A stretch of DNA of 64,000 nucleotides from a virus. The DNA lies in the IMG/VR virus record IMGVR_UViG_3300023184_000036; one strand, given 5' to 3'. The position numbers were made by a program, and so were the translations under genes. Below, in pieces: positions 9,601 to 48,661 of this stretch (position 1 is the first letter of the stretch; every line of letters starts with the position of its first letter). Below the pieces are notes generated by a model. That model made no database searches. It saw only the letters and a list, made by a program, of their open reading frames with translations, and was not told the origin of the DNA.

Positions 9601-9922
9601 TATTACCATTACTACCAACTATTACATATATTGAACCATTACTTGCAATTGCATTATATACAGCACGTGCATTACCAGTTTGTGGATTATAACCAGCATC
9701 ACTGTTTTTAAAATCATATAAATTTGCTAAATTAAGAATATCACTGTATTCAGTGAGAATTTCTGTATTACCAGTTTGTGGCGCACCATCACTTACAAGA
9801 CCGTTACCAATAAAAAGACGGCGTTCATCGACAGCATAACCTATTTCTGCCTTTGCAAGTTGTGGTAGATTTTCAAAAATTCCGCTACGATGTTGTATTC
9901 TTGAGATTTGGACAATGCTCAT
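6590..9922 (-). CDS. Tail fibre/spike-like virion protein: N-terminal attachment segment, Asp-box beta-propeller repeats, pectate-lyase-3-like beta-helix
   Basis: LPQLAKAEIGYAVDERRLFIGNG N-terminus; more than 10 SxDGxTW-type repeats; VSVKDFGARGDGVTDDTEAINRA and YFPAGEY; TAAATA upstream. Confidence 0.75.
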   Translation of the reverse strand: MSIVQISRIQHRSGIFENLPQLAKAEIGYAVDERRLFIGNGLVSDGAPQTGNTEILTEYSDILNLANLYDFKNSDAGYNPQTGNARAVYNAIASNGSIYVIVGSNGNILTSSDGSTWSSTISGTTQNLLDIAYGGGYFVAVGTNGTVLYSSNGTVWQPSGAVSYTNINAIVYASSKFVLVTELGEVFTSNNGVTWSSQTSGTTDALYSIAYGNSKFVAGGTNGRIITSPDAITWTVTSVGFYDVLGLRYITNGSGNSFVAACESNKVYVSTDGSTWTRSLVDGLVSVTNDGTNAWSLTSWGDVYKNASGTTLSKITTVASAIENFKYIYHNGAGLFTVLTGSGGIYTSGTGSTWTARTSGVSTSLNSVYFDGTTWVVVGDSGVILTSTTGTTFTARTSGTSQNLIGITKLSTTTWIAVGANGTILTSPNATTWTSRSSGTSAELRSVAVANLGGGTYKAIAVGTGGIGVSSADGTTWSSAIANSATDPSGATVTLSDLNSVQYYTFTPPGGASTNYWIVTGDHGVIATSTNGTSWFTKTTTTYANLTGSTYIGTYFYVSGDTSLTYLKSQDAVTWTYTSIYFGTSALAPDLYDIADNNTTNVIGGQYGFFYYSTSQYNYFRKETQSVTYSNRGMGYIGSTYYAIGDNGHISTSLDAQTWTTQSLSYGGTITQRSLQKKLDDFVSVKDFGARGDGVTDDTEAINRAMYELYCRTTSLAARKVLYFPAGEYIVSGSINVPSYARLRGEGTYNTQITQTANPYIYPYTTWVMYTADDLQQIQNLIGLNGASLPTDITISDMTLQSLNDGIVVDSATRVTLNNIRFQGPNTSTVTVLTDPINGSTTAGVKLLGRALAYASDVNITDCLINGFHVGIYLPSSQYTSNGLIDSCTFSNLYHGLYFVGTSAIGFTISNSTMDLIYNSGCYMTNSTNFLSLSNYYRDVGNKSTGVANPFYRIIYFDTTISGCASIGDSFDRTAAQASTSTGIPYVSEVEQAVEWVYSYGLRMGTINYQRGRTLALANNTTAALVTGLNEFGENFGFEFQYTITRGSNVATGLAKFTLTSGGLYSIEDDRTFSSDVGVTFGYNGSDVTYTTDSTGTGLINYAIRYFDMF

Positions 9923-13779: not shown

Positions 13780-14055
13780 TTATAAGTGCGGATTTTTCGC
13801 AATATAAATTATCAACCCTAATAGGGCTGTTAGTAGTGAGCCAATAATGCCAATTCCCAAGCCAACGAGTTTTTTATAAGCCATAGTTTCTTTCTCGATC
13901 AACATATTTTTGATCTCGCTGACTATGGATTCGACTGTAGCAAGTCTTGTTTCCATAGTATTCATTTTTTCATCCATTCTTTCATAACGCTCTGCACAAA
14001 GATCAACGTGTGCTTCTAAACTTTCACGTTCATTTTCATAAACTTTAGTTGCCAC
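13780..14055 (-). CDS. Coiled-coil protein with single C-terminal transmembrane helix
   Basis: GGAG RBS before GTG at 14055; TATAAATA at 14081-14088; hydrophobic LVGLGIGIIGSLLTALLGLIIYI. Confidence 0.7.
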   Translation of the reverse strand: MATKVYENERESLEAHVDLCAERYERMDEKMNTMETRLATVESIVSEIKNMLIEKETMAYKKLVGLGIGIIGSLLTALLGLIIYIAKNPHL

Positions 14056-14094
14056 TTTGTTCTCCAAATGCAGTGCAAAGTATTTATAATATGG

Positions 14095-14442
14095 TTAAAT
14101 CATTAAAAAGTGGGTGTTTTTGTGTTCACTGTCTATTAGAGCACAGTTTATGTCAAAATCAATAGTTTCATTAAGTCCAGATATAATAGGAAGATGCTGA
14201 ACTATTTTTTCAAGTTCAGTTATGTTTATGTTTTCAGTAGAATCAAAATCAAATATCCAGACATTATGAAAACCGCTATAGTTTTTACCAAAATCTAAAC
14301 CAGTTAAATCTCTATGAATTTTCTTTGGAAAGTTTTGAATTTCAAAATTGCAATATAGACTTATAGATTGCATAAGTGAAACCCAATTTTTATTTGGATT
14401 TGTTTCTGTTCCCAAATCTATAAGTGTTAAACAACGTATCAT
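14095..14442 (-). CDS. Hypothetical protein
   Basis: Start placed at MIRCLTLIDLG because the longer ORF would run through a terminator. Confidence 0.6.
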   Translation of the reverse strand: MIRCLTLIDLGTETNPNKNWVSLMQSISLYCNFEIQNFPKKIHRDLTGLDFGKNYSGFHNVWIFDFDSTENINITELEKIVQHLPIISGLNETIDFDINCALIDSEHKNTHFLMI

Positions 14443-14459
14443 AAGAGTATATAGACAAT

Positions 14460-14487
14460 AAAAAAGGGCGGTAAAAATACCGCCCTT
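14460..14487 (-). terminator. Rho-independent terminator after 14511..14945
   Basis: AAGGGCGGTA/TACCGCCCTT stem, 4-nt loop, U tract on minus strand. Confidence 0.85.
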
Positions 14488-14510
14488 AATTCTACTATAT
14501 TCACCCACTA

Positions 14511-33861: not shown

Positions 33862-34191
33862 ATGGCTATAAAATTACTATTTGACTTTACTAAGTCACAT
33901 TCAACAGAAACTTCTGAAATATATCACTTAATGGATCAAATGGATATTTTTGACCAAAATTTTTTAGATAATGGTATAATTCACTCTATCCAAAGTTCAT
34001 CCGATATAACTGGTGAAAACATACATGAACAAACCTATTATATTTTTGATTCACTAGCTAATTTTCAAAACTTTCTTGAATCTAAAAATAGTTCAGAAAT
34101 TGAGAATTTATGGAAATCTGTTTATGATGCTAGATTCAAAAAAGGGTTTTTAATGAAATTCTCTATCGATTATAATTATGTAATTGAATAA
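33862..34191 (+). CDS. AT-rich hypothetical protein
   Basis: TATAAATA at 33839-33846 and GGAG RBS before ATG 33862. Confidence 0.65.
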   Translation: MAIKLLFDFTKSHSTETSEIYHLMDQMDIFDQNFLDNGIIHSIQSSSDITGENIHEQTYYIFDSLANFQNFLESKNSSEIENLWKSVYDARFKKGFLMKFSIDYNYVIE

Positions 34192-34892
34192 TTGCTTCTA
34201 GCATAACGTTCACGATAATGACGTTCACCTGGTTCTAAACTACGAGCCAACTCTACATAATCTGGACCCTTACTATGCAACCAAGCCTCGTGGTCAAAAC
34301 GCCAATGAGGATTAGTTGGATGACGGGTAAACTGTGTAAAGTTATGATTTAATCTATCTTCTGGATGTGCAATAGGTTCTAACTTAGCAACATAATCACT
34401 CTTTGCCCACCAGAAATTACCAGCAAAGTGTGGCCATGGGGCAGTATTGTAATTTGTTCCAACAGCTTCTGCACCTTCACCAAGTGCTTCAACATTATCA
34501 CGCCACTTCTCAATCGTTGCCCAATTCATAAAGTCACGCCAATCACCAACGTTTGGATCACCATAACGTAACAAACCTTTAAGATGAATATAACAAATAT
34601 GATAAGGTTGACTTGCTTCACGTGCTTGTTGTAACATATACATCAATGTTGGCCATTCATGATAAGCAGCATCTTTGTTGACGCTTGCAAGTTTAAGTTT
34701 GCCTGTTGAGTCATTAATATTCTTTGTTGACAACCAATTAGTAAAGGTCCAAGGTTGACCATTCATACAGATATGGATTTCACTGGCTGCATCCCATAAT
34801 CCAGATTTTTCAATTAAGTCCCATTGTTGGTCCATTACTTGGTTCCAACCGCCTAGTTCATTTACATGCCAGAAAATCTTGATCGGTGTCAT
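34176..34892 (-). CDS. Putative glycosyltransferase-like protein (GT-A-type, YxHxKG family)
   Basis: EWPTL, YIHLKG, WR..M, HFAGNFWWA, R...E.W motifs; adjacent to the sugar cluster. Confidence 0.55.
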   Translation of the reverse strand: MTPIKIFWHVNELGGWNQVMDQQWDLIEKSGLWDAASEIHICMNGQPWTFTNWLSTKNINDSTGKLKLASVNKDAAYHEWPTLMYMLQQAREASQPYHICYIHLKGLLRYGDPNVGDWRDFMNWATIEKWRDNVEALGEGAEAVGTNYNTAPWPHFAGNFWWAKSDYVAKLEPIAHPEDRLNHNFTQFTRHPTNPHWRFDHEAWLHSKGPDYVELARSLEPGERHYRERYARSNYSIT

Positions 34893-34911
34893 TTTATTAC
34901 CTTGTTGATGT

Positions 34912-34985
34912 TGGTGGAGAATATCAGAGTCGAACTGATGAATCCGCCTTGCAAAGGCGGCGGTTTTCCACTAGCCTAATTCCCC
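34912..34985 (-). tRNA. tRNA-Ala(UGC)
   Basis: GGGGAAT/ATTCTCC acceptor with G3:U70, CCGCC-TTTGCAA-GGCGG anticodon arm, TTCGACT T loop, A73, encoded CCA; TTGACA-N17-TATATT upstream. Confidence 0.93.
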
Positions 34986-35024
34986 ACTAGATAATAATAT
35001 ATATCCAGACATAATACATGTCAA

Positions 35025-35200
35025 GAAAAAACCCCTGCGTGGCCCATTTTAGTTACACCAGAGGCAGAGGTTTTAATAGTAGCCATCATCGGAATGATAA
35101 GACCAACCCAACGAATTGAATTGGGGGGTTAAGCTAGTTATAAGATCAGTAAAAAACGTATTCCGTTAGTTGCACACACTCGTCAGAGGAGTGGTTATAG
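35025..35200 (-). ncRNA. Candidate structured non-coding RNA
   Basis: ORF-free, relatively GC-rich, five predicted stems with G-U pairs favouring the minus strand, ending in an 11-bp stem plus U tract. Confidence 0.4.
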
Positions 35201-35223
35201 AATAAATTTATAAACTGATAATA

Positions 35224-35415
35224 TTATTTAACACTTTTTATTACGTCAATCAATAAACTTTTAAATTCTTCTTTTGCTGGTAAAAAAACTTGTTCACGAA
35301 TTTGATTACGATGTCTATAATTACTATACTTTTCTTCTTCCCACATATCATCTTGGGCATCAATCATCTTTTCCATAGCAATCAACATTTTTTCTAATAG
35401 TTCGTCTGTTGTCAT
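35224..35415 (-). CDS. Small hypothetical protein
   Basis: GAGGA RBS; 63 aa. Confidence 0.7.
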   Translation of the reverse strand: MTTDELLEKMLIAMEKMIDAQDDMWEEEKYSNYRHRNQIREQVFLPAKEEFKSLLIDVIKSVK

Positions 35416-35422
35416 TTTATCC

Positions 35423-36154
35423 TCATAATGATAAGAAACTTTGTGAACGGTCTATCCATTCTAATACTAAATCTTTTTCGTCAAAATTATCAATAGCACT
35501 TAATTTAGCATCTAAACAATATGGCAATCTACCTGTATCTTTCAATTCATATAAACTTCTATACACACGTGGTTCATCAGTAGTTTTATAAACAGCAGCA
35601 CGTAACCAACGATTTTGTTTATCAAACTGAAAATGTGCATTACGACAATCAAAACCAGCACTTGCTAATTGAACAATAAGACTGCTCATTGTATAAACAT
35701 GATACATTCCATTTACCATATTAACGTTTACAGTATTGTGTTGTATATGTTGACTTATAGAAAGTGAATATGGAATTTCAACTATTAATAATCCATCTTT
35801 TTGTAACAACTTATGCCAATGAAATAATGTAGCAACAGGATTTAAAGCATGATGCAATGCGTTGTGACACCAAATAAGGTCTTGCGAAGGTAACTCTATA
35901 GTAGAGAAATCTTCAAATATCCACTTCATTCCTTGAACAGTTTGTATGTTATGCGGTGGTGCTACTTCCACAGCAGTAACATTAAAATTATACTTTTGCC
36001 CATCTGGACTTACAAGCGATGCCCACCATACAGCATCATAACCCATACCAGCCCCCATAACACAAATATTATCTAATCCCATAAGATAATCATCTAACAT
36101 AGACAAATAATTTAGTGTTACAAGACTATGGGAATGGCTTTCTTGAGGTGTCAT
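35423..36154 (-). CDS. Class I SAM-dependent methyltransferase
   Basis: MGAGMG motif I, DLIWCHNALHH, LQKDGLLIV. Confidence 0.75.
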   Translation of the reverse strand: MTPQESHSHSLVTLNYLSMLDDYLMGLDNICVMGAGMGYDAVWWASLVSPDGQKYNFNVTAVEVAPPHNIQTVQGMKWIFEDFSTIELPSQDLIWCHNALHHALNPVATLFHWHKLLQKDGLLIVEIPYSLSISQHIQHNTVNVNMVNGMYHVYTMSSLIVQLASAGFDCRNAHFQFDKQNRWLRAAVYKTTDEPRVYRSLYELKDTGRLPYCLDAKLSAIDNFDEKDLVLEWIDRSQSFLSL

Positions 36155-36206
36155 TGGGTGTCCGTTAAATATTGCTATAGATTATATAGTAGGATATTAT
36201 TAGGGT

Positions 36207-37004
36207 ATGAAAATTTTAATCACGGGCAGCAACGGATTTATTGGTAGTTATTTGTGCAAGTATTATGCCGAATATGGTCATCAAGTTATACAATTACATC
36301 GTGGAGTCTGTGATTTAGAAGATAGTGAGAGTGTTAGAAATTTCTTTACTGCAAATCCATGCAATACTGTAATTCACACAGCACTATGGGGTCGTGAATT
36401 AGTTCGCAGTGATAATCCAGAAGTATATGACCGCAACTGGAAAATTTGGCAAAATCTATTAAGTAATCGTGACAAGTTTCAACAATTTATTAATATTGGA
36501 ACAGGTATGGAGTATGATGGTGGACGAGACATCAAATATGCTGATGAAGATGATGCCTTATATGTGGAGCCTACTGCTCCTTATGATAGGGTTAAAAACG
36601 ATATATCTCGTGCTATTCATAATCTACCATCTTTTTATACACTTCGTTTATTCGGAGTAGCACATTATACAGAAGGTAATCGTTTCTTTAATAGACTATT
36701 AAATGAACCAACATTTACAATTAATGAAGATCGTGAATATGATTATTTTAATTTAGAAGATCTACCAACCGTAATAGATTTAATTTTAGATAATAAAATA
36801 CAACATAAAGCAATAAATTGTGTTTATGAACAGAAATATAAATTAAGTCAACTTGCAAAATTATTCTGTGATATTAAAATGCTTGATTATAAAAAAGTGC
36901 AAGTATTAGAAACTAGTAATAAAAATTATACTGGAAGCAATGACAGATTAAAAAGTTATAATATGCCACTACTTGGTTTAGAATTAGCCATGCTTCGGTT
37001 TTAA
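36207..37004 (+). CDS. NAD-dependent NDP-sugar epimerase/reductase (extended SDR)
   Basis: ITGSNGFIG, YDRVK (YxxxK), LRLFGV. Confidence 0.85.
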   Translation: MKILITGSNGFIGSYLCKYYAEYGHQVIQLHRGVCDLEDSESVRNFFTANPCNTVIHTALWGRELVRSDNPEVYDRNWKIWQNLLSNRDKFQQFINIGTGMEYDGGRDIKYADEDDALYVEPTAPYDRVKNDISRAIHNLPSFYTLRLFGVAHYTEGNRFFNRLLNEPTFTINEDREYDYFNLEDLPTVIDLILDNKIQHKAINCVYEQKYKLSQLAKLFCDIKMLDYKKVQVLETSNKNYTGSNDRLKSYNMPLLGLELAMLRF

Positions 37005-37991
37005 TTTACCGTTTTCATCAAACAAGATTTCAGCAAAACGTTTTTTGCATGATTCACCATTCCATGCTTGTTGCATTTTAGCAACTTGATCAACACCAAT
37101 TTCAATTGCTTGCTTAAAACTTGTTTGTGGATATGGTGGAATATATTGGTGAATATGACGGAAGGCATGGTCACCACTGCACAACATAGGGCGACCAACC
37201 ATAAGTGCTTGGTCAGTAGCACTGCTAATACCAGTTGTATTACGAGCATAGAAGAACACGTTTAATGTATTCTGTGACAACCATTCTAACAACTCTTGGT
37301 CACTGAAATAGTTTTCAGTAAGTTGTATTTCAATGCCAGGTTTTGCAATAGGTAAACACTGTGTAGCAACTTCCATACGAGCATAACCGCCAACATCACC
37401 ATAGTAACTACCAGGTGCATAGTTCATTCTTATAATTGCACGATCAAATTCTTCATTAACTGCACGAACAAGATTACCAAGGTTTCTACCATGACCAGCA
37501 AGACCGTATGTTCCAATAACTGGTATTTCTTTTTCTACATATGGTTGAACCTTTGCAGTGCCAAGTGGACGTGGAAATGCATAGAAACGCTTGTCATGAA
37601 AATCAGCGGTTGGGTCTACCCAAAAATAAGCATCAAAATCATCAATGTTTACACCTTCTAAACCAGCATATGGATTGTTCGGAAAACCTTCAAAGTGAAA
37701 GCAGAACTTCATACCTGGCAAGTTCTTACAAATCATTTCACTGCGAACACCGCTTTGGTCACGCATGGTAGAGATATGATAGTTAAAGAAATAAGCATCA
37801 TATGGTTCTTTTTCTTCACCACGATGAATAACTTTACCGCTATTAAGTGCGGATATATCTAAATCATTTGTTTCAAAATAATCCATAGTATAATTTGCAC
37901 CGTCTTTAAGAACATTATGCAACATTCTACCAATAGTGCTCATACTGCAAGCACCACGATCTTTGTTTATAAGTGCAAATTTATAGGTCAT
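36984..37991 (-). CDS. GT-B-fold glycosyltransferase-like, paralog 1
   Basis: PVIGTYG, EEFDRAIIR, WLSQNTLNVFFY, DQAL..GRP, FRH. Confidence 0.65.
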   Translation of the reverse strand: MTYKFALINKDRGACSMSTIGRMLHNVLKDGANYTMDYFETNDLDISALNSGKVIHRGEEKEPYDAYFFNYHISTMRDQSGVRSEMICKNLPGMKFCFHFEGFPNNPYAGLEGVNIDDFDAYFWVDPTADFHDKRFYAFPRPLGTAKVQPYVEKEIPVIGTYGLAGHGRNLGNLVRAVNEEFDRAIIRMNYAPGSYYGDVGGYARMEVATQCLPIAKPGIEIQLTENYFSDQELLEWLSQNTLNVFFYARNTTGISSATDQALMVGRPMLCSGDHAFRHIHQYIPPYPQTSFKQAIEIGVDQVAKMQQAWNGESCKKRFAEILFDENGKLKPKHG

Positions 37992-38968
37992 AAACCAATC
38001 CTTTTGAATATTTTAGTAAAGTCTTCATGTATTTGTTCTGGTGTAAATCTTTTGTGAACTGGTTCCCATGGTTTAGTTCCGTGTGCTATGATTTGTTTTA
38101 ATGATGAATTTTCAACAATAATAGTTGGTTCTAAATTCCAATAACTTTTGAACTGATGGCTTTTAGTAATTGCAATAGGACGACGAGCAGCAATAGCATA
38201 ATCAATACTACCACTCATACCAGCACCATCAAGATAATCATAGAAATAACAATTAACAGTATTTTGTGCCAACCAGTTTACAATACCTTGTTCATCAAGC
38301 CAATCATTGCTGACCTCTACTTTGATATTAGGTTTTGTAATAATGGAATTTACCTGTGCAAGAATTTGTGGTCCATATGTATTTTTTGGTTGTGTAAAGA
38401 ATCCATCTGGCATATGTAGTCGTATAATAGCTTCATCGAACTCATGTTGAACTTGTGCTGCAATTCTATGAACACCCTTCCATGGTGCAGGAAATCCTTG
38501 CCATCCAATTACAGGTATATTTTGCTCAACATATTCTACTGTTGGTGTTTTTGCAGGTAAATGATTTACAACAAATACACCTTCATTCTGTGGAACGCTT
38601 TCATCATATGTCATCATATATTGCCATATAGGATGCGTATATGGATTCCATTGTTCAGCAAATTGTTTGGCTTGATCATAAACAATACAAATGCATTTAA
38701 TATCTGGATATAATCCACGTAGACTCATTGATTCAATCCACGGATTAACACCTTTATGAAAATTAAAAATAACTAAATTTGGTTTGTAGTCTAATATCTT
38801 TTTGCTACACTCATCAATACTGTCAGTATAAATTGTTTCAATTTTATAAAGTGGATGTTTATCCAAAATATTTGCTAATAATGAACCCGTTAAACTGACA
38901 CCACATCTACCACGATCATTTTCATCTGTGATTGGTGTAGTAACATATAATATCTTTGCATTATTCAT
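37988..38968 (-). CDS. GT-B-fold glycosyltransferase-like, paralog 2
   Basis: PVIGWQGF..WKG, EFDEAIIR, WLAQNTVNCYFY, DYAIAARRP. Confidence 0.65.
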   Translation of the reverse strand: MNNAKILYVTTPITDENDRGRCGVSLTGSLLANILDKHPLYKIETIYTDSIDECSKKILDYKPNLVIFNFHKGVNPWIESMSLRGLYPDIKCICIVYDQAKQFAEQWNPYTHPIWQYMMTYDESVPQNEGVFVVNHLPAKTPTVEYVEQNIPVIGWQGFPAPWKGVHRIAAQVQHEFDEAIIRLHMPDGFFTQPKNTYGPQILAQVNSIITKPNIKVEVSNDWLDEQGIVNWLAQNTVNCYFYDYLDGAGMSGSIDYAIAARRPIAITKSHQFKSYWNLEPTIIVENSSLKQIIAHGTKPWEPVHKRFTPEQIHEDFTKIFKRIGL

Positions 38969-39929
38969 TTGCTTGTTTTACCTGTTCTGCAATCCAATGA
39001 TATGTTTTGCTTATACCACCATATAAATCTTGTGGCGGAACCCAACCAAGTTTTTCACGAATTAAATCATTATTACTATTTCGTCCACGCACACCTTGTG
39101 GACCAGGTATGTGTTTTATTGTAATTGTTTTATCAGCAATACCACTTACCATAAGAACAAGATTATTAATACTAATGAGATGGTCACTACCAATGTTAAC
39201 TGGACCTTCAAAGTCACTGTCCATAAGGCGCATAATACCCTCTACACAATCATCCACATGTAAGAAACTACGAGTTTGTTCGCCATCTCCCCATATTTCA
39301 ATCTCGCCACCTTCTGGAGCCATAGCAACTTTACGGCAGATAGCGGCTGCGGCTTTTTCTTTTCCACCTTGCCAAGTTCCATATTCACCAAATATATTAT
39401 GAAAACGTGCTATACGATTACGCATACCATACTGACGATTATATGTAAGATAAAGGCGTTCACTGAACAGTTTTTCCCAACCATATTCACTATCTGGGTG
39501 AGCGGGATAAGCAGTGTGTTCACGACAGTCTGGATGTTCTGTGTCCATTTGGTTGTGTTCATTATAAACACAAGCACTACTACTAAAAAATACTTGTTCT
39601 ACGCCATTGCGGTGTGCGGCAGTTACAACATTAAGATTAATCTTTGCGCTGTTGTTCATTACTTCTGCATCATTAACACCAGCGTTGATATAACCAGCAC
39701 CACCCATATCAGCGGCAAGCTGAAATACACGGTCAACTTTACGATCAATAATAAAATCAACAACGTTTGGATTGCGACAGTCACCAATAAAGAACTCATC
39801 ACATGCACTTGATGCAAATTCTGGTTGTTTTAAATCAACACCACGAACCCAATAACCATCTGCTTTAAGACGCTTGGCAACATGACTGCCAATAAATCCA
39901 CCTGCACCTATTACAATTGCTGTTTTCAT
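38961..39929 (-). CDS. GDP-mannose 3,5-epimerase-like SDR
   Basis: GAGGFIG, LAADMGGAG, SSACVY, YGWEK, GGKEKA..A.CRK, WGDG.QTRSF, GVRGRNS; GAGG RBS before ATG 39929. Confidence 0.88.
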   Translation of the reverse strand: MKTAIVIGAGGFIGSHVAKRLKADGYWVRGVDLKQPEFASSACDEFFIGDCRNPNVVDFIIDRKVDRVFQLAADMGGAGYINAGVNDAEVMNNSAKINLNVVTAAHRNGVEQVFFSSSACVYNEHNQMDTEHPDCREHTAYPAHPDSEYGWEKLFSERLYLTYNRQYGMRNRIARFHNIFGEYGTWQGGKEKAAAAICRKVAMAPEGGEIEIWGDGEQTRSFLHVDDCVEGIMRLMDSDFEGPVNIGSDHLISINNLVLMVSGIADKTITIKHIPGPQGVRGRNSNNDLIREKLGWVPPQDLYGGISKTYHWIAEQVKQANE

Positions 39930-39930
39930 T

Positions 39931-40911
39931 TTATTCCTCGTTGTCAAATATAATTTCTGTAAGTCGTTCAATGCAACGTTGTTGACTCCAATCCTGTTGA
40001 ATCTGTCGCACATAATCAACACCATTTTCAATGGTTTCACGCAGACTCATTTCTGGATATGGCTTTTGATATTGTAAGACATGCCTAAATGTTGGATTGT
40101 TTACTACAGCAATAGGACGACCACTTGCTATTGCTTGGTCAGGTGCAGCCGCAATGCCTAAAATATGACGTTGATAGAAGAAAGCATTTACGGTATTACG
40201 ACTGCACCAATCTATAAGTTCATCATTGCTGTAGAAATTATGTGTAATCTGTAATTCAACATTGTCACGTGCAGCGGCACGACATTGTTGTAAAACTTGA
40301 TTTAGTAATGATTTGTTTTGGTCACTATATGCTGCTTGTGGTAGGTTAATACGCACAATAGATTTTTCAAACTCTTCACTTGCTGCCTTGACAATAAGAT
40401 CAAATCCTTTGTCTACCGTTACATAACCATAGCATCCAATAACAGGAACTTCTGGAACATACTTGTAACCTGGTACAATTTTAGGAAGCACACGTGGAAA
40501 AGAGTGGAAGCGTGGATTACCAAACTTTTTTGTAGGATCAAGAACAATGTAACCATTAAAACTATCAGGAACATTGTCTACAACTGGATTAGCATCATCA
40601 CGGATTTCTTCAACTACCATGCAATAGTTTACACCAGGAAACTTATAGAACTGTGTGCAATCAATACCTTCCATTTCACGCATAGTATATGGATGATAGT
40701 TCCAAATGATAGCATCGTATTGTGGTGGACTACGACCATCAGGTCCATAAATGCGACCATTATGAAGTTCCATACGATTTAAGTAATTTACTTCCGCATA
40801 ATCCATTTTCCAATGTGGCGAGTTTTCCATTAAATTAAAAAATGTCAAACCCTTTTCATAAATTGAGCAGTTTGCTTCACGTGTATTAACGAATAAAAAT
40901 CTATGTTTCAT
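39931..40911 (-). CDS. GT-B-fold glycosyltransferase-like, paralog 3
   Basis: PVIGCYG...DKGF, EEFEKSIVR, WCSRNTVNAFFY, DQAIASGRP, FRH. Confidence 0.65.
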   Translation of the reverse strand: MKHRFLFVNTREANCSIYEKGLTFFNLMENSPHWKMDYAEVNYLNRMELHNGRIYGPDGRSPPQYDAIIWNYHPYTMREMEGIDCTQFYKFPGVNYCMVVEEIRDDANPVVDNVPDSFNGYIVLDPTKKFGNPRFHSFPRVLPKIVPGYKYVPEVPVIGCYGYVTVDKGFDLIVKAASEEFEKSIVRINLPQAAYSDQNKSLLNQVLQQCRAAARDNVELQITHNFYSNDELIDWCSRNTVNAFFYQRHILGIAAAPDQAIASGRPIAVVNNPTFRHVLQYQKPYPEMSLRETIENGVDYVRQIQQDWSQQRCIERLTEIIFDNEE

Positions 40912-40912
40912 A

Positions 40913-41830
40913 TTACTTTTCTATATGGTAACCGCTTGTTTGTTTATTGTTCTTGATATCATCAATTGCACGTTCAATAATACGAACAGCAGGACTTGAA
41001 AATGTTGTATTGCTAAAACGGAAGTCTGCCGCAATGTCAAGACCATAAGGCAACAAGTCTTCTGGCTTATGACTAAAGTTTACAAATACTTTATTCTTAT
41101 CAAGCAAGTTTTGTTTTGTATTAGCATAAGTGAATGGACCACTATTCTTTCCAACAATAAGATTTACTTTTGTTGAAAGATATGAAATATCACAAAGATC
41201 ACATGTGTCACTAAAGATATCACCTGTAAAAAAAATGTTATCAAGTTTGGTTTCAAACTTCTCTGTTGCAACTATTGTATCATTCTTATGATTTTCAGCA
41301 ACATATTCAATAATACTTTTCATATTATCCATACTACTTTGCTTACTTGCTACTGCACTATTACAGAACAGATAAACATTACCTACCAACTCACTATTAT
41401 TATCTACAGCGGCAGTATTATACTTGCTATAATCAATTTCTGGAACATAATCCCATACATCATTACTTAACTTAAGGTCAATGCCAAATTGCTGACGAAG
41501 ATTGTTGTAGCACTCACCAATGATACGATGATGGCTGATATAACTTGGGTGAGTGTTTGGCCAAAGACCCATGTAACTACCTACCCAAGTATTGATAAGG
41601 ATAGTATCTTCATCAACACCAAAACGCTTCCACTGATCAATGCCATCAAGCACTGCTTGATTGTTTTCTGCATCAAGTGTTTCTGCAAGGTCAATGATTG
41701 CACGTGGATTTTTCTTATGTGCATAATAAAAGTTAGATTCTGGCAATTGACGCTTGATATCGGCAACCCATCCTCGTGTAGAGAATAGGTCACCGTAATG
41801 CCAATGGTTAAAGAATACTATGTTTTCCAT
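40913..41830 (-). CDS. Putative GT-B (GT9-like) glycosyltransferase
   Basis: HYGD near N-terminus and LIVGKNSGP, resembling GT9 GD and DSGP motifs. Confidence 0.45.
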   Translation of the reverse strand: MENIVFFNHWHYGDLFSTRGWVADIKRQLPESNFYYAHKKNPRAIIDLAETLDAENNQAVLDGIDQWKRFGVDEDTILINTWVGSYMGLWPNTHPSYISHHRIIGECYNNLRQQFGIDLKLSNDVWDYVPEIDYSKYNTAAVDNNSELVGNVYLFCNSAVASKQSSMDNMKSIIEYVAENHKNDTIVATEKFETKLDNIFFTGDIFSDTCDLCDISYLSTKVNLIVGKNSGPFTYANTKQNLLDKNKVFVNFSHKPEDLLPYGLDIAADFRFSNTTFSSPAVRIIERAIDDIKNNKQTSGYHIEK

Positions 41831-41833
41831 AGA

Positions 41834-43057
41834 TTATCCAATAACTTGGAAGGTTGGGCAAGGAACTACTAATTTACCGCCCTTAGATATGAAATCTTGC
41901 TCACGCTTGACGAACTCATCAATAAAGTGCCAAGGAAGAACAAGCAAGTAATCTGGGTTTGCTGCTCTCATTTCTTCTTCACTGCAAATTGGAATATTAG
42001 TTCCAACTGTCAACAATCCAAACTTATATGGGCTACGTTCAGCAATAGCAGTGACAAGATCAGGAGTGATACCAAACAATTGTAGTAGTGTGTTACCCTT
42101 TGTTGAAGCACCATAACCATAAACCTTCTTACCTTCTGCCTTTGCTTGATGCAAGAAGTCAAGAACTTGCTTTTTCAAGTTCCAAATGTTATCACCAAAT
42201 TCTTTCCAAAGGTCTTCATCAGTGATATTCCACCAAGCATTTTCATACTGTAGCGTAGCTGCAATACGCATTTCACAAACGTCACGAATCTGGCGTGTGG
42301 CAAATGTCTTTTCATCAGCAGTATCTTTTTGGAAAGTTACACGGAATGAACCACCATTAGCGTCATTAAGTGTGCAATCACGTAGAACAAATCCTTCACT
42401 TTCAAACAATTTCTTAATGCTGTTTAAATCATAATAGTAAACGTGTTCATGGCAAATGTTATCAAATGCCAACTGCTTCAACATAAGTGGTGTATAACTC
42501 ATTTGTAGAACAAATACACCATCATCTGTAAGAATATCATGTGCATCACGAATAAATGGACGTGGGTTATCAAGATCATAGAACATTGCAATACAAGTAA
42601 TAACCTTTGCCTTTGCATCTGGACCAAGACCAAGACGGTTCCAAGCATCCTTTGTAAAGAAGTCTTGAATTACACGTGCATGTTTGGTGCTTTCTGCCAA
42701 GAAACTATCATCAGCAGGATCAATACCAACCTTTGTCATATAATCAGGAACTTGACGAAGCAATGTGCCATCATTACAAGCAATGTCAAGCCAGATATCA
42801 CCACTTTGTGTCTTGGTACGGCTTGTAACTTCTGCAACAACATCACCAAGAAGTTTAGTCATTGTTGCATTAGTTCCGCTGCGATACCAGTATTGTCCAT
42901 ACATCTTGTCCAATGGTGCAACACCATCAAGACGGACTGCACCAATAGTTTGGTCAAGATAAAGATCAAGCGACCAAGGCTTTGTTTCACGCATTTCTGC
43001 GCCTGGTTTCATAAAATCACTTACGTAGTGATCACCTAATTCTAAAATCTTTTTCAT
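41834..43057 (-). CDS. NDP-hexose C3-methyltransferase family
   Basis: YWYRSG, DIACNDG, FDNICHEHVYYY, GGSFR, YGASTKGNTLL, LPWHF. Confidence 0.88.
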   Translation of the reverse strand: MKKILELGDHYVSDFMKPGAEMRETKPWSLDLYLDQTIGAVRLDGVAPLDKMYGQYWYRSGTNATMTKLLGDVVAEVTSRTKTQSGDIWLDIACNDGTLLRQVPDYMTKVGIDPADDSFLAESTKHARVIQDFFTKDAWNRLGLGPDAKAKVITCIAMFYDLDNPRPFIRDAHDILTDDGVFVLQMSYTPLMLKQLAFDNICHEHVYYYDLNSIKKLFESEGFVLRDCTLNDANGGSFRVTFQKDTADEKTFATRQIRDVCEMRIAATLQYENAWWNITDEDLWKEFGDNIWNLKKQVLDFLHQAKAEGKKVYGYGASTKGNTLLQLFGITPDLVTAIAERSPYKFGLLTVGTNIPICSEEEMRAANPDYLLVLPWHFIDEFVKREQDFISKGGKLVVPCPTFQVIG

Positions 43058-43476
43058 TTTAATCCCTCGTTGATATATGATTTTGTTTCTACAATATCGC
43101 TATTGTATAGTTTGTTGATATCTAATTTGTATTGGCAACGGTCTTTATTACCTTGGTGAACGTCAGTGACTAACTTGATAAATTCACTGTCATATGGTTT
43201 CAAATCGGAACCATATGTTCTTACAACGTCTTCATGTCGCCAAATCATATGATTTACTGCTTTAAGATTCTTGACAATATCATCAATCGGCGCACTTGGT
43301 GCTTCAAGTCCATCAATAATCTTCATGAGTTCTGCTAATTCTTTGGTAACATATTCAATTTTAATGCGATTTGTTTCGTTATCTACCTTGCCATATTCTT
43401 CTAACTTAATGTTTAGAATAGTAATCTTATCCCACAAATCGCCAATGCTAATTGGCGCAAATACTAATTGTCCCAT
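43054..43476 (-). CDS. DUF6165-like coiled-coil protein of sugar clusters
   Basis: PISIGDLWDKITILNIK..N..IW..ED..R..N..R...K..IN....S...E.K. Confidence 0.65.
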   Translation of the reverse strand: MGQLVFAPISIGDLWDKITILNIKLEEYGKVDNETNRIKIEYVTKELAELMKIIDGLEAPSAPIDDIVKNLKAVNHMIWRHEDVVRTYGSDLKPYDSEFIKLVTDVHQGNKDRCQYKLDINKLYNSDIVETKSYINEGLK

Positions 43477-43478
43477 GT

Positions 43479-44498
43479 TCAGCCTTTCTTTGCCAAGTTA
43501 TAGTCATTTTCACACATATCACGAACAAGGTCTTGTAGCGAATATTGTGGTTGCCAACCAAGAACTTCACGAACCTTTGTAGCATCGCCTTGAATGTTTA
43601 CAACATCAACAGGACGGTAAAACTCTGGATTTACACGAATCATAACATCACCACCAACACTATTACGTGCTACCTCATTTACACCAGTTCCTTCCCAAAG
43701 CAACTTAATACCAAAGTGTTCTGCAGTAAGATTACAAAAATCACGAATGCTGCTTTGAACACCAGTAGCAACAACATAATCATCTGGAGTATCGTGTTGC
43801 AACATCATCCACATAGCACGAACATAATCTTTGGCATGACCCCAATCACGCAGACTGTCCATATTACCAAGTTCAAGCACTTTCTGCTTACCTAATACCA
43901 TATTAGCAAATGCTTTTGTAATCTTACGAGTAACAAAAAGTTCACCACGGCGTGGACTTTCATGGTTAAATAATAAACCATTGGAACCAAAAATCTTATA
44001 ACTTTCACGATAGTTTACCGTGATCCAGTAAGCATAAAGTTTGGCAGCACTATAAGGAGAACCAGGATAGAATGGTGTATCTTCCTTCTGTGGATTAAAC
44101 TTCTGGATACCAAACATTTCACTGGTTGATGCTTGATAAAACTTTACATCATCTACCATCTTCAATGAACGGATACTATCAAGAATACGCAGCGGTCCAA
44201 GAGCATTTGTATCACCTGTAAGTTCTGGCATTTCAAAACTTACCTTAACATGACTCTGTGCCGCAAGATTATAAATCTCTGTTGGACGAACGTTGTCAAT
44301 AAGATTACGGATGCTATTTGCATCACTCAAGTCACCATTATGAAACTTGACTCGATCCTTTACTTCTTGAATATTTGGGTGGTCAAAGTTTGCGCTACGG
44401 CGAATAAGACCATGGACCTCGTAGCCTTTGTCAAGTAGCAATTCTGCCAAATAGCTACCATCTTGACCTGCGATGCCTGTAATAAGTGCTCTTTTCAT
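43479..44498 (-). CDS. gmd: GDP-mannose 4,6-dehydratase
   Basis: ITGIAGQDGSYLAE, LAAQSHV, QASTSE, SPYSAAK, FNHESPRRG, RDWGHA. Confidence 0.95.
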   Translation of the reverse strand: MKRALITGIAGQDGSYLAELLLDKGYEVHGLIRRSANFDHPNIQEVKDRVKFHNGDLSDANSIRNLIDNVRPTEIYNLAAQSHVKVSFEMPELTGDTNALGPLRILDSIRSLKMVDDVKFYQASTSEMFGIQKFNPQKEDTPFYPGSPYSAAKLYAYWITVNYRESYKIFGSNGLLFNHESPRRGELFVTRKITKAFANMVLGKQKVLELGNMDSLRDWGHAKDYVRAMWMMLQHDTPDDYVVATGVQSSIRDFCNLTAEHFGIKLLWEGTGVNEVARNSVGGDVMIRVNPEFYRPVDVVNIQGDATKVREVLGWQPQYSLQDLVRDMCENDYNLAKKG

Positions 44499-44549: not shown

Positions 44550-45011
44550 TTATGCTACCGTAAAGTCTTCCATTCCTGCTGTCTTAAGTCGGACCATGTG
44601 ACCCAACATAAAATTTTTACTTTCCAGTGCTTTCATTACACCTAACCAACGATTACGCAATAGTGCGACTTCGTTAATAATGGTTTCATAATCAATAACT
44701 TCTTGTTCACCATCTACATACTTTTCAGCATCACGGCTTGTTAGCGCACGAGCATAATGTTCCAAATATTTTTGGAAATGTTTTCTACGTATTTTACGTA
44801 ATTGGATATTAAGAAAATTAAGCACTGCTTCTATTTCTTGTAGTTGATTAAAACGATATGCTGTTATACCAGGTAGTGCACTCATATTTTTTTCTACAAT
44901 ACCATTAATATTAATATCACGATGTGCTAAATTAAATTCAGCTTCGTAATATGCAATAAAGTCTGGTATTAATCCTATGTCTTGGCTTACTCTGGTATAC
45001 CAACTGCTCAT
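44550..45011 (-). CDS. uvsY: UvsY-like recombination mediator
   Basis: Helical 153 aa with AEKYVDGE and AGMED; downstream of uvsX. Confidence 0.7.
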   Translation of the reverse strand: MSSWYTRVSQDIGLIPDFIAYYEAEFNLAHRDININGIVEKNMSALPGITAYRFNQLQEIEAVLNFLNIQLRKIRRKHFQKYLEHYARALTSRDAEKYVDGEQEVIDYETIINEVALLRNRWLGVMKALESKNFMLGHMVRLKTAGMEDFTVA

Positions 45012-46288: not shown

Positions 46289-46332
46289 ATAATATAATAT
46301 GTGGGCAGACTTGTCAATAAATCCGCCCACAT
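46289..46332 (-). promoter_or_regulatory. Hairpin overlapping a TTGACA-N17-TATTAT promoter for uvsX
   Basis: 14-bp imperfect stem 46299-46332; -35 at 46312-46317, -10 at 46289-46294. Confidence 0.55.
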
Positions 46333-47476: not shown

Positions 47477-48661
47477 ATGTCAATAAGTATTTGCATGTTT
47501 TTTAGTTTAGAGAGTCAAAAAAATCAAAAATTTCCAATCCAATTTTATATTAATAATGTCGTTTTTAATACAGATTTAGGTTGGAAAAAACAAATTATAA
47601 ATGGAAAAACAATTATTTACAAGGGTTATGCAGATTTTTTTCCTATGGAAAAAATTTTAGAAGAATTAATAGAAGAAAAAATTACAAAATTTACAGGAAA
47701 TTTCTGTGCATTTATCTTTTCCGAAACTTATATTGAATGTAAATCAGATTTGTATCGTGGGTTTCCAATTTATTACAAAGAAGAATGTATTTCTAATTTA
47801 TTTGAACAAAAAAATAAAATTTTTTCAAATCAAATTTTACAATCTGATTACAATTTTAATATAAAATTACAAAATGTAGATTTTAATGATTCTACTAAAA
47901 ATTTAAATTTAAATTTTAATGAAACTATTGAATACATAGATGATTTATTGAATAAAAAAATAAGTAAATTTCTTTCTTTTAATGAACTACCCGTAAAATG
48001 TTTTTTATCTGGCGGTGTGGACAGTATGTTGGTTTTTAGTTACATTAAAAAGTTTACAAAATATTCCATTGTAAGTGGTGAAATTTATGATTTTGATTAT
48101 TTTACTTTAAAAAATAACTACGATATTAAAAAAAATTGGGCATATAGACAGATAAATCATTTTAAAGAACCAAACTTATGGATAAGTGGAGCACCTGGTG
48201 ATGAATTTATGCTAAGAAGTCCTGATACGTCAAATTTGTATTGTATTAGTAAACAAACTACTATTTTAAATTTACTTAAAGAAGAAAAATATAAAGATTG
48301 TTTGCACAAATTTTACTTTACTAATGATGAATCACTAGATTTTTTTAAAAAACAAGAAGATAAGAATAATAAAATTTTAATTAAAAGTCCTGAATTTGCA
48401 AAAAAAATTATTTTTGAAAAGATTTTAAACGATTATCAACATCACCATTTGGGTAACACACTTACGTATACTCCACTTCGAGATTTGAACATTACAAATG
48501 CAATATTAAACTTACCAACAGAAGTTGTATTTGACCAAATAATGGACAGTAGTATTAGCAAAAGTTTGATAGAAAAAAATGATAAAAATTTACTTAAATT
48601 TTTAAGCACATATAAAAACTATGAAAACTACATGGAAAATCTAATTGGTTTGGTAATTTAA
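47477..48661 (+). CDS. Asparagine synthetase-like (AsnB C-terminal ATP pyrophosphatase) protein
   Basis: FLSGGVDS PP-loop, GAPGDEF, TPLRD; degenerate N-terminal Ntn domain; true start may be 47495. Confidence 0.75.
   Translation: MSISICMFFSLESQKNQKFPIQFYINNVVFNTDLGWKKQIINGKTIIYKGYADFFPMEKILEELIEEKITKFTGNFCAFIFSETYIECKSDLYRGFPIYYKEECISNLFEQKNKIFSNQILQSDYNFNIKLQNVDFNDSTKNLNLNFNETIEYIDDLLNKKISKFLSFNELPVKCFLSGGVDSMLVFSYIKKFTKYSIVSGEIYDFDYFTLKNNYDIKKNWAYRQINHFKEPNLWISGAPGDEFMLRSPDTSNLYCISKQTTILNLLKEEKYKDCLHKFYFTNDESLDFFKKQEDKNNKILIKSPEFAKKIIFEKILNDYQHHHLGNTLTYTPLRDLNITNAILNLPTEVVFDQIMDSSISKSLIEKNDKNLLKFLSTYKNYENYMENLIGLVI

Follow-up and report, generated by a model that had tools for sequence, protein, structure and literature searches.

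Sugar islands, also labelled 'LPS / cell-wall modification' islands (LPS, lipopolysaccharide), have been described in aquatic myophages such as P-SSM2, S-SCSM2R (PMC12801897) and DSL-LC02 (OR032571, PMC10611076). Islands that combine Gmd, epimerases and a large number of glycosyltransferases have been reported in phages from the first cyanomyophage genomes onwards, and the passages of these papers that deal with them offer conjectures on function, either host-surface change or DNA protection, without data (PMC12801897, PMC10611076). Here we describe a cassette of this general kind in a 64-kb stretch of viral DNA (IMG/VR record IMGVR_UViG_3300023184_000036; the whole stretch is called the window below), in which the block studied extends from position 34176 to 44498. 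The aquatic islands resemble it in combining Gmd, NDP-sugar epimerases/reductases, glycosyltransferase banks and a methyltransferase in lytic phages, but they have Fcl-type reductases and a C-methyltransferase with a zinc ribbon, and the window differs in both. In the only island compared, that of the Dishui Lake phage DSL-LC02, the gene order is Gmd, a homologous C-methyltransferase (33% identity), a fucose-synthase-like reductase, seven glycosyltransferases and an FkbM methyltransferase; no DUF6165 gene, no GT9-like gene and no close match to the GDP-mannose 3,5-epimerase (GME) of the window was found there. The DSL-LC02 C-methyltransferase is annotated only as 'methyltransferase domain-containing protein', and the parts of the paper that deal with the island name Gmd, the fucose synthase and the glycosyltransferases, not this gene (PMC10611076).

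For the virenose of Coxiella burnetii a GDP route has been proposed that consists of Gmd, a TylCIII-like methyltransferase and an epimerase/reductase (PMC3539893, PMC3204966). The virenose passages of a 2026 review report no biochemical proof of this route. It has the same three steps that are considered here for the window, from GDP-mannose to the 4-keto-6-deoxy sugar, the 3-C-methyl sugar and the reduced product; unlike the window, it is an in-silico proposal for a bacterial O-antigen assembled on a lipid carrier. C-branched 6-deoxyhexoses are rare and are known from a few antibiotics and from O-antigens such as that containing the Coxiella virenose. C3-methyltransferases act on NDP-4-keto-6-deoxy sugars, and 4-ketoreduction then gives 3-C-methyl-6-deoxyhexoses of the virenose/evalose type.

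Autonomous glycosylation by giant viruses has been reviewed (PMC9614988, PMC7019647). As would the phage considered here, these viruses make their own GDP-6-deoxy sugars from host GDP-mannose with soluble cytoplasmic enzymes and decorate virion proteins without host machinery; their hosts are eukaryotic, their sugars are O-methylated and not C-branched, and their acceptors and glycan structures have been determined experimentally, whereas those of the window are proposed from its genes. Chlorovirus PBCV-1 has GMD and GMER and glycosyltransferase/methyltransferase proteins of the A064R type, and mimiviruses have fibril glycans. In bacteriophages, virion glycosylation was reportedly described for mycobacteriophages by Freeman et al. 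in 2023 (PMC10527164, as cited in PMC12801897). Like the window, the mycobacteriophage and the DNA-glycosylation systems have phage-encoded glycosyltransferases, some of them together with sugar-nucleotide genes. The mycobacteriophage systems draw on host sugar pools and are not known to use a branched sugar. Full-text literature searches yielded no paper linking phages with a sugar C-methyltransferase and GDP-mannose.

The window comes from a large, uncultured tailed phage of a lake (jumbo myophage). Its phage origin, assumed in the first-pass annotation of the stretch, was borne out by a large terminase, tail sheath, tail tube and ribonucleotide reductase; a DnaB-like helicase and polymerase pieces are also present. 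The terminase is about 54% identical to those of the Pseudomonas jumbo phage PA5oct and its kin, and the G+C content of the block (35-38%) is the same as that of the remainder of the window. A megablast search with the block gave no match among 50,697 phage records. The nearest record is an IMG/VR genome of 338,435 bp with terminal repeats (G001), which has the same block with protein identities of 82-99%. The genes listed in the first-pass annotation were all found where it had placed them, with matches far beyond chance, and the hidden Markov model and structure searches that it had recommended confirmed their identities by Pfam, NCBIfam and PDB matches and by folds obtained with AlphaFold2, Foldseek and VIA; three corrections to its reading are given below.

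The genes of the block are tightly packed, and we read it as a self-contained module for GDP-sugar diversification and glycan assembly. We estimate at roughly 60 per cent the probability that the cassette would turn host GDP-mannose into a methyl-branched sugar and into L-galactose/L-gulose, to be built into a small glycan. The chemical steps, like the acceptor considered further below, are proposed on the basis of observed gene identities, folds, catalytic residues, synteny and module structure. In one branch (branch A), Gmd would convert host GDP-D-mannose to GDP-4-keto-6-deoxy-D-mannose, the zinc-less C-methyltransferase would methylate the ring carbon beside the keto group with S-adenosylmethionine (SAM), at C3 by family analogy, and an RmlD-like short-chain dehydrogenase/reductase (SDR) would reduce C4. 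The product would be a GDP-6-deoxy-3-C-methylhexose of the evalose/virenose class, whose stereochemistry is not readable from sequence. In the other branch (branch B), GME would convert GDP-D-mannose to GDP-L-galactose and GDP-L-gulose. Four soluble GT-B enzymes, one GT9-like and three GT4-like, would assemble a short, methylated hetero-oligosaccharide in the cytoplasm, probably helped by the DUF8361 protein and an O-methyltransferase. Assembly would take place directly on the acceptor, without an undecaprenyl-phosphate primer.

No nucleotidyltransferase (NTP_transferase) match able to make GDP-mannose was found in G001, so GDP-mannose must come from the host; this agrees with the earlier suggestion that the phage builds its own sugar from host GDP-mannose. 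No membrane span was predicted from sequence in any cassette protein, and no priming phosphoglycosyltransferase (Bac_transf, WecA-type) was found in G001, which together make direct assembly on a cytoplasmic acceptor most likely.

Gmd scored 481.7 bits against TIGR01472 (equivalog cut-off 415) with residues 2-334 of 339 covered, and matched PF16363 with an expectation value (E) of 1.6e-136. Its translation contains GIAGQDG (GxxGxxG), STSE and YSAAK (YxxxK), which, from knowledge of the family, we take to be the cofactor and catalytic motifs (Thr/Glu, Tyr-x3-Lys). The C-methyltransferase matched PF08484 (E 2e-45, 154.7 bits) and PF13489 (56.9 bits) and could be aligned end to end with TylC3 (4rv9, E 3e-41), TcaB9 (3ndi) and KijD1 (5t64), with E values ranging from 1e-34 to 1e-41. 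These three are dTDP-hexose 3-C-methyltransferases and have the architecture of a SAM domain plus PF08484 in common with the window enzyme; unlike them, the window enzyme has no zinc ribbon, has Asp for His181 and Cys for Tyr222 (TcaB9 numbering) and is adjoined by GDP-sugar rather than dTDP-sugar genes. Aligned with 3ndi and 4rv9, it retains Tyr76 and both residues of the Glu224-His225 pair of TcaB9. Relative to TcaB9 its sequence begins some 21 residues further on, with Gln and Gly at the position of the second Cys pair. Counts of viral loci refer, here and below, to the best 80 of at least 242 IMG/VR contigs that encode relatives of the C-methyltransferase: the CxxC is missing in all 80 of these homologues, and it is kept in most cellular homologues and in a second paralogue encoded by G001. 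Many columns are invariant across sequences that are 61-99% identical, and this strong conservation suggests that the enzyme is likely active.

A cellular sample of 17 full-length C-methyltransferase homologues (35-57% identity) bears on the substrate. In 14 of the 17 loci Gmd (41-55% identity) or an Rmd-like Gmd paralogue (33-38%) is close by. A Gmd orthologue lies within a few kb in nine loci, the Rmd-like paralogue is directly downstream in five, mostly from Verrucomicrobia, two of which also have a Gmd orthologue, and in one more locus the only such neighbour is a more distant Gmd-like gene (27% identity). In Verrucomicrobia, Gmd, the C-methyltransferase and the Rmd-like gene are directly adjacent in that order. 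The cellular neighbours are Gmd or Rmd-like genes, not dTDP-glucose genes, and Gmd is near the C-methyltransferase in 74 of the 80 viral loci. Gene context in cells and viruses points to GDP-4-keto-6-deoxymannose, and we infer that the substrate is this GDP-sugar; all solved members of the family use dTDP. The first-pass annotation had named an enzyme accepting only dTDP sugars as one outcome that would overturn its pathway, and the loci counted above speak for the GDP side as far as gene context goes. Apart from the cassette, G001 encodes a second sugar C-methyltransferase (C1:295845-297059; L003 9846-11060), 29% identical to the first, in which the zinc ribbon PF08421 is kept. It adjoins genes of 225, 298, 237 and 450 aa without assigned function and could be part of a second branched-sugar pathway elsewhere in the genome.

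The SDR gene is convergent with the gene of paralogue c and overlaps it by 21 bp. Its product matched PF01370 (E 1e-18) and PF04321 (47.4 bits, cut-off 27), the latter over only the first 176 of 287 profile positions, and has GSNGFIG (GxxGxxG) at residues 7-13 and YDRVK (YxxxK) at 126-130; matches to RmlD in the PDB were weak. On family resemblance and linkage it is a candidate 4-ketoreductase. It remains linked to the cassette even where it has moved upstream of Gmd (L054, L056, L059, L060), and it is present without GME in L029, L038, L039 and L041; that it is kept with Gmd and the C-methyltransferase when GME is missing argues that it belongs to the methyl-sugar branch.

GME matched the Arabidopsis enzyme (2c59, E 3.5e-98) and 8sg0 (E 8e-96) and has about 55% identity with plant GME. 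Catalytic Cys, Lys and Tyr-x3-Lys residues are kept, and the segments SSAC, YGxEK and GGxEKA are identical in the alignment to 2c59. The open frame has 359 codons (38961-40040). Since the alignment to 2c59 starts at residue 37 and the orthologue in L090, a T4-like phage contig, has 322 aa, translation probably starts at Met38, with the ATG at 39929, rather than at the GTG at 40040; this ATG falls just beyond the last base (39931) of the upstream paralogue a.

The four GT-B proteins had no Pfam (E up to 0.01), NCBIfam or PHROG match. For the GT9-like protein 101 homologues were found, none with a Pfam domain, and for the most distant of them cluster look-ups returned only 'hypothetical protein'. 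The GT9 sequence model PF01075 was not matched, and a profile of 36 homologues found nothing among PDB sequences at E up to 1. An AlphaFold2 model built from the same number of homologues reached a predicted local distance difference test score (pLDDT) of 92; its top Foldseek matches were 3tov, WaaC, WaaF and TibC (E 6e-7 to 1e-4), and VIA gave Z scores of 13-15.3 over about 250 residues for GT9 enzymes, vs 11-12 for UDP-GlcNAc 2-epimerases and other GT-B folds. Across the 36 homologues, Asp14 and the segment G227-x-N-S-G-P show no or almost no variation; presumably they correspond to the N-terminal catalytic Asp and the glycine-rich donor loop of the C-terminal domain in GT9. Paralogues a and c are 36% identical over their full length (E 1e-75), and b is 25% identical to either (E 1e-20 to 1e-24). 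The model of paralogue a (22 homologues, pLDDT 91) matched SenB, HepE, BGluT, PimB', GtfA, TarM and TreT in Foldseek with E about 1e-10 and probability 1.0. GT4 sequence models (PF00534, PF13692 etc.) were not matched by the paralogues, and their profile gave nothing meaningful against PDB sequences; only fold comparison placed the GT4-like and GT9-like families. The paralogue homologue of DSL-LC02 is deposited as 'glycosyltransferase family 4 protein'. The earlier description of a GT9-like protein and three GT-B paralogues thus holds for the GT-B folds (Foldseek, VIA) and not at the level of GT9 or GT4 sequence-family models. A summary of the features of the block is in Table 1.

Table 1. Genes of the sugar cassette and its flank in the window
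Feature	Positions	Strand	Length (aa)	Assignment based on or remarks
Gmd (the 4,6-dehydratase of GDP-mannose)	43479..44498	-	339	TIGR01472, PF16363
DUF6165 protein	43054..43476	-	140	PF19662
NDP-hexose C-methyltransferase, TylC3/TcaB9 family	41834..43057	-	407	PF08484, PF13489
GT9-like GT-B glycosyltransferase	40913..41830	-	305	AlphaFold2 fold, Foldseek/VIA
GT-B, GT4-like, paralogue a	39931..40911	-	326	AlphaFold2 + Foldseek
GME, GDP-mannose 3,5-epimerase	38961..39929 (frame open to GTG at 40040)	-	322	PDB 2c59
GT-B, GT4-like, paralogue b	37988..38968	-	326	25% identity to a and c
GT-B, GT4-like, paralogue c	36984..37991	-	335	36% identity to a
Short extended SDR, RmlD-like	36207..37004	+	265	PF01370, PF04321; candidate 4-ketoreductase
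Class I SAM methyltransferase	35423..36154	-	243	Methyltransf_23, Methyltransf_11
DUF8361 protein	34176..34892	-	238	PF27674 (protein atlas, precomputed Pfam)

Several observations weigh against the two-branch pathway. In the C-methyltransferase, His181 of TcaB9 is replaced by Asp and Tyr222 by Cys, and the N-terminal four-Cys zinc ribbon PF08421 gave no match, with no zinc-binding Cys left. No characterised GDP-sugar C-methyltransferase was found in full-text literature searches or among solved structures. The SDR is short at 265 aa and scored 32.6 bits against the RmlD equivalog TIGR01214, far below its cut-off of 224. No Pfam-detectable reductase was found in the cassette of the T4-like carrier L090, and tblastn with the window SDR gave no match in L090 and five other more distant carriers; in these phages reduction may be done otherwise. 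Since no sequence family model was matched, the donors and acceptors of the glycosyltransferases are not readable. The whole-genome statements rest on G001, a separate genome which has 26% of the window's sampled 31-letter words in common with it.

The lack of a recognisable ketoreductase in L090, which does have GME, would suit a single pathway instead of two branches. GME would then act on the methylated 6-deoxy sugar (GDP-6-deoxy-3-C-methyl-D-mannose) and, C3 being blocked, invert only C5 to give GDP-L-virenose (L-gulo). The location of GME inside the cassette fits this, and 5-epimerisation alone is allowed by the chemistry of the enzyme, which proceeds by transient C4 oxidation followed by C5 and C3 epimerisation; the by-product GDP-L-gulose is the 5-epimer. 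We consider such a single pathway unlikely. The closeness of GME to the plant enzyme, with all catalytic residues kept, suits the canonical substrate, and GME is dispensable, as loci with Gmd, C-methyltransferase and SDR can be without it. Moreover, gain and loss of GME go hand in hand with those of a glycosyltransferase paralogue of its own, which would be expected if it supplied a separate donor sugar: among 44 loci with enough flank, 18 had both GME and an orthologue of paralogue b, 22 had neither and four were discordant, counts to be read as a pattern rather than a probability because many loci are close kin. This co-occurrence points to a separate donor-plus-transferase module, in keeping with two branches, and paralogue b probably transfers the GME product.

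The recurrent gene order, established on the best 80 loci, is Gmd, DUF6165, C-methyltransferase, GT9-like, GT4-like, GME, GT4-like, an optional third GT4-like gene, SDR on the opposite strand, methyltransferase and DUF8361. The cassette is syntenic in the jumbo lineage and in T4-like phages, where L090 has gp32, gp59 and PhoH as neighbours. Two kinds of gene fill the slot after the GT9-like gene, orthologues of paralogue a (47-89% identity) and a version with no more than 24-27% identity, within flanks that are 80-90% identical. By analogy with O-antigen loci, this is a glycosyltransferase slot that is swapped between otherwise near-identical phages. All three paralogues occur together in only five loci, the window included, and an orthologue of paralogue c with at least 90% identity was found only in L024, L025, L031 and L061. 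Some loci have further genes. In the T4-like carrier L090 a gene at 8744-9625, between Gmd and DUF6165, encodes a 293-aa protein in which a cytidylyltransferase-like domain is fused to a cupin (MannoseP_isomer C-terminal), and a DUF2452 gene at 14013-14501 lies between GME and paralogue b. In a 735-kb uncultured megaphage (L105, LR756501.1 309331-334545) a 54% identical C-methyltransferase, a second paralogue, a DUF8361 homologue and a GT9-like homologue were found within 25 kb; Gmd was not detected in this stretch.

DUF6165 matched PF19662 only marginally (27.3 bits, cut-off 27), and its protein atlas clusters are DUF6165, mostly viral. Its stop codon overlaps the start of the C-methyltransferase gene, and it lies directly upstream of that gene in 56 of 77 viral loci; it has an invariant set of charged residues (A4) and comes in two highly dissimilar versions, the flanks being conserved. 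A replacement of the lost zinc ribbon by DUF6165 finds no support in co-occurrence, since the ribbon is missing from all 80 viral enzymes whether DUF6165 is adjacent (56) or not (21). Complex prediction for the two proteins scored 0.00 in both runs, a value without weight on the question of binding. None of the PHROGs families covers the glycosyltransferases, the C-methyltransferase, DUF6165 or DUF8361.

At the other end of the cassette, the class I SAM methyltransferase at 35423 suggested in the first-pass annotation gave weak matches just above the cut-offs (Methyltransf_23, 27.6 bits, cut-off 27; Methyltransf_11, 23.4 bits, cut-off 21.2). Of the 80 loci, 20 have it together with the cassette, which is nearly every locus that extends so far, and it is probably a glycan O-methyltransferase. 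The gene at 34176, previously called glycosyltransferase-like, encodes a DUF8361 protein, and glycosyltransferase activity is not demonstrated for it. A profile search found 4143 representative relatives, and in four of ten multi-domain relatives scanned DUF8361 is fused to GT2, GT9, GT17 or Methyltransf_24. These domain fusions tie DUF8361 to glycan assembly, and 'GT-like', at which one low-ranked protein atlas cluster also hints, may serve as a lead. No PDB match was obtained with the DUF8361 profile, and none of 17 members matched the local Pfam copy. A tRNA-Ala (TGC) gene lies between the two genes (34912-34985, minus strand); ahead of it, at 35024-34996, there is a match to TTGACA, 17 nt, TATATT.

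As for the acceptor, three targets had been named beforehand: virion proteins, the phage DNA and the host surface. Virion proteins are now favoured, host surface stays possible, and DNA is disfavoured by the searches for base modification in G001. Virion proteins are put first because of the analogy with chloroviruses, mimiviruses and mycobacteriophages and because of the serotype-like swapping; by these analogies we give them slightly less than even odds, the host envelope (LPS core or a surface protein) being a possible acceptor of distinctly lower standing, a small molecule or RNA a rather unlikely one, and DNA a very unlikely one. GT9-fold and GT4-fold enzymes glycosylate both lipids and proteins, and TibC and GtfA are among the structural matches. 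A fuller version, which we put forward only tentatively, is autonomous protein glycosylation by lake phages: the virion proteins would be coated with a short glycan of 3-C-methyl-6-deoxyhexose and L-galactose/L-gulose, the glycosyltransferase slots would be swapped like O-antigen serotypes, and DUF6165 and DUF8361 would count as novel families of enzymes or adaptors. If true, chlorovirus and mimivirus glycosylation would have an equivalent in bacteriophages, and a GDP-sugar C-methyltransferase would for the first time have a natural role assigned to it.

The closest structural relatives of the 305-aa GT9-like enzyme, the LPS-core heptosyltransferases WaaC and WaaF, would also fit a cassette that alters the LPS core or a surface glycoprotein during infection, and published discussions of glycosyltransferase and sugar islands in cyanophages prefer host-surface modification (PMC12801897). 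Such remodelling could block superinfection or stop progeny from sticking to debris. The position of the cassette among replication and recombination genes, with a near-consensus sigma-70-like promoter (TTGACA, 17 nt, TATTAT; 11/12 matches) at 46317-46289 upstream of the gene string, would be consistent with this. On the other side, sigma-70-like sites are at chance frequency (62 vs 60.4 in shuffled sequence), GT9-fold enzymes such as TibC glycosylate proteins too, neither a membrane protein nor a flippase, polymerase or ligase is encoded in the cassette, and no priming enzyme was found in G001. Envelope remodelling appears doubtful on balance, and modification of virion proteins is preferred. 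The promoter at 46317-46289 may head the minus-strand gene string through the sugar cassette. A hairpin with a 14-bp stem (46289-46332, minus strand) overlaps it, in the gap before the UvsX-like recombinase gene. Terminator-like sites were also at chance level, and of the T4-type late promoter TATAAATA six copies were found where 9.9 were expected by chance.

Attachment to DNA was the third target. Phage clusters of several glycosyltransferases with sugar-nucleotide genes are documented for DNA glycosylation (bioRxiv 10.1101/2023.12.21.572611; PMC13326640). Some of their enzymes have the GT-B fold, and the cassette lies among DNA-metabolism genes. The glycosyltransferases would in that case decorate a hydroxylated base against restriction, as in T-even phages, RB69, DLP3 and the TET-linked clusters. 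DNA-glycosylation systems need such a base, supplied either by a ThyA homologue acting as hydroxymethylase or 5hoC synthase or by the combination of a C5-methyltransferase with a TET/JBP dioxygenase, and no such route was found in G001. Its only ThyA homologue is a canonical thymidylate synthase above equivalog cut-offs, with the catalytic Cys and the dUMP-selecting Asn (segment PFNIASY) kept. No C5-cytosine methyltransferase (PF00145), TGT/DpdA or QueC match was found in G001; nor was Tet_JBP (PF12851) matched, a weak negative since the controls were also unmatched. T4 beta-glucosyltransferase was not among the top structural matches listed. DNA hypermodification is thus the least probable of the three. 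Deazaguanine modification of DNA, considered because of weak radical-SAM and PP-loop matches nearby, was rejected, as TGT/DpdA and QueC were not found in G001. Next to the thymidylate synthase gene of G001 (L104 624-1496) there is a 290-aa extended SDR of the NDP-sugar dehydratase/epimerase type.

Two further genes of the window lie beyond Gmd. A 153-aa protein without family match (44550-45011, minus strand) is encoded after the UvsX-like recombinase and a small open reading frame. It precedes Gmd in 40 of 80 viral loci and not in the T4-like carriers; it looks like a neighbour in the lineage and not a part of the cassette, possibly a recombination mediator. A 394-aa protein (47477-48661, plus strand), with a weak PP-loop/asparagine-synthase-like match at residues 168-195, is encoded divergently from the minus-strand gene string.

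Phage sugar islands themselves are known; what is new here is that the cassette has a C-methyl and a GME branch and, as companions, DUF6165 and DUF8361, two families now tied to glycan biosynthesis. The phage C-methyltransferase, soluble, compact, zinc-less and available in hundreds of natural variants, offers a convenient route to C-methyl sugar chemistry. The cassette is common in freshwater viromes, with at least 242 contigs and two unrelated myophage lineages. Its modular, allele-swapping set of glycosyltransferases suggests diversifying selection on the glycan, and if this is true, the glycan layer matters in phage ecology, whether virions, infected cells or, with less likelihood, DNA carry it.

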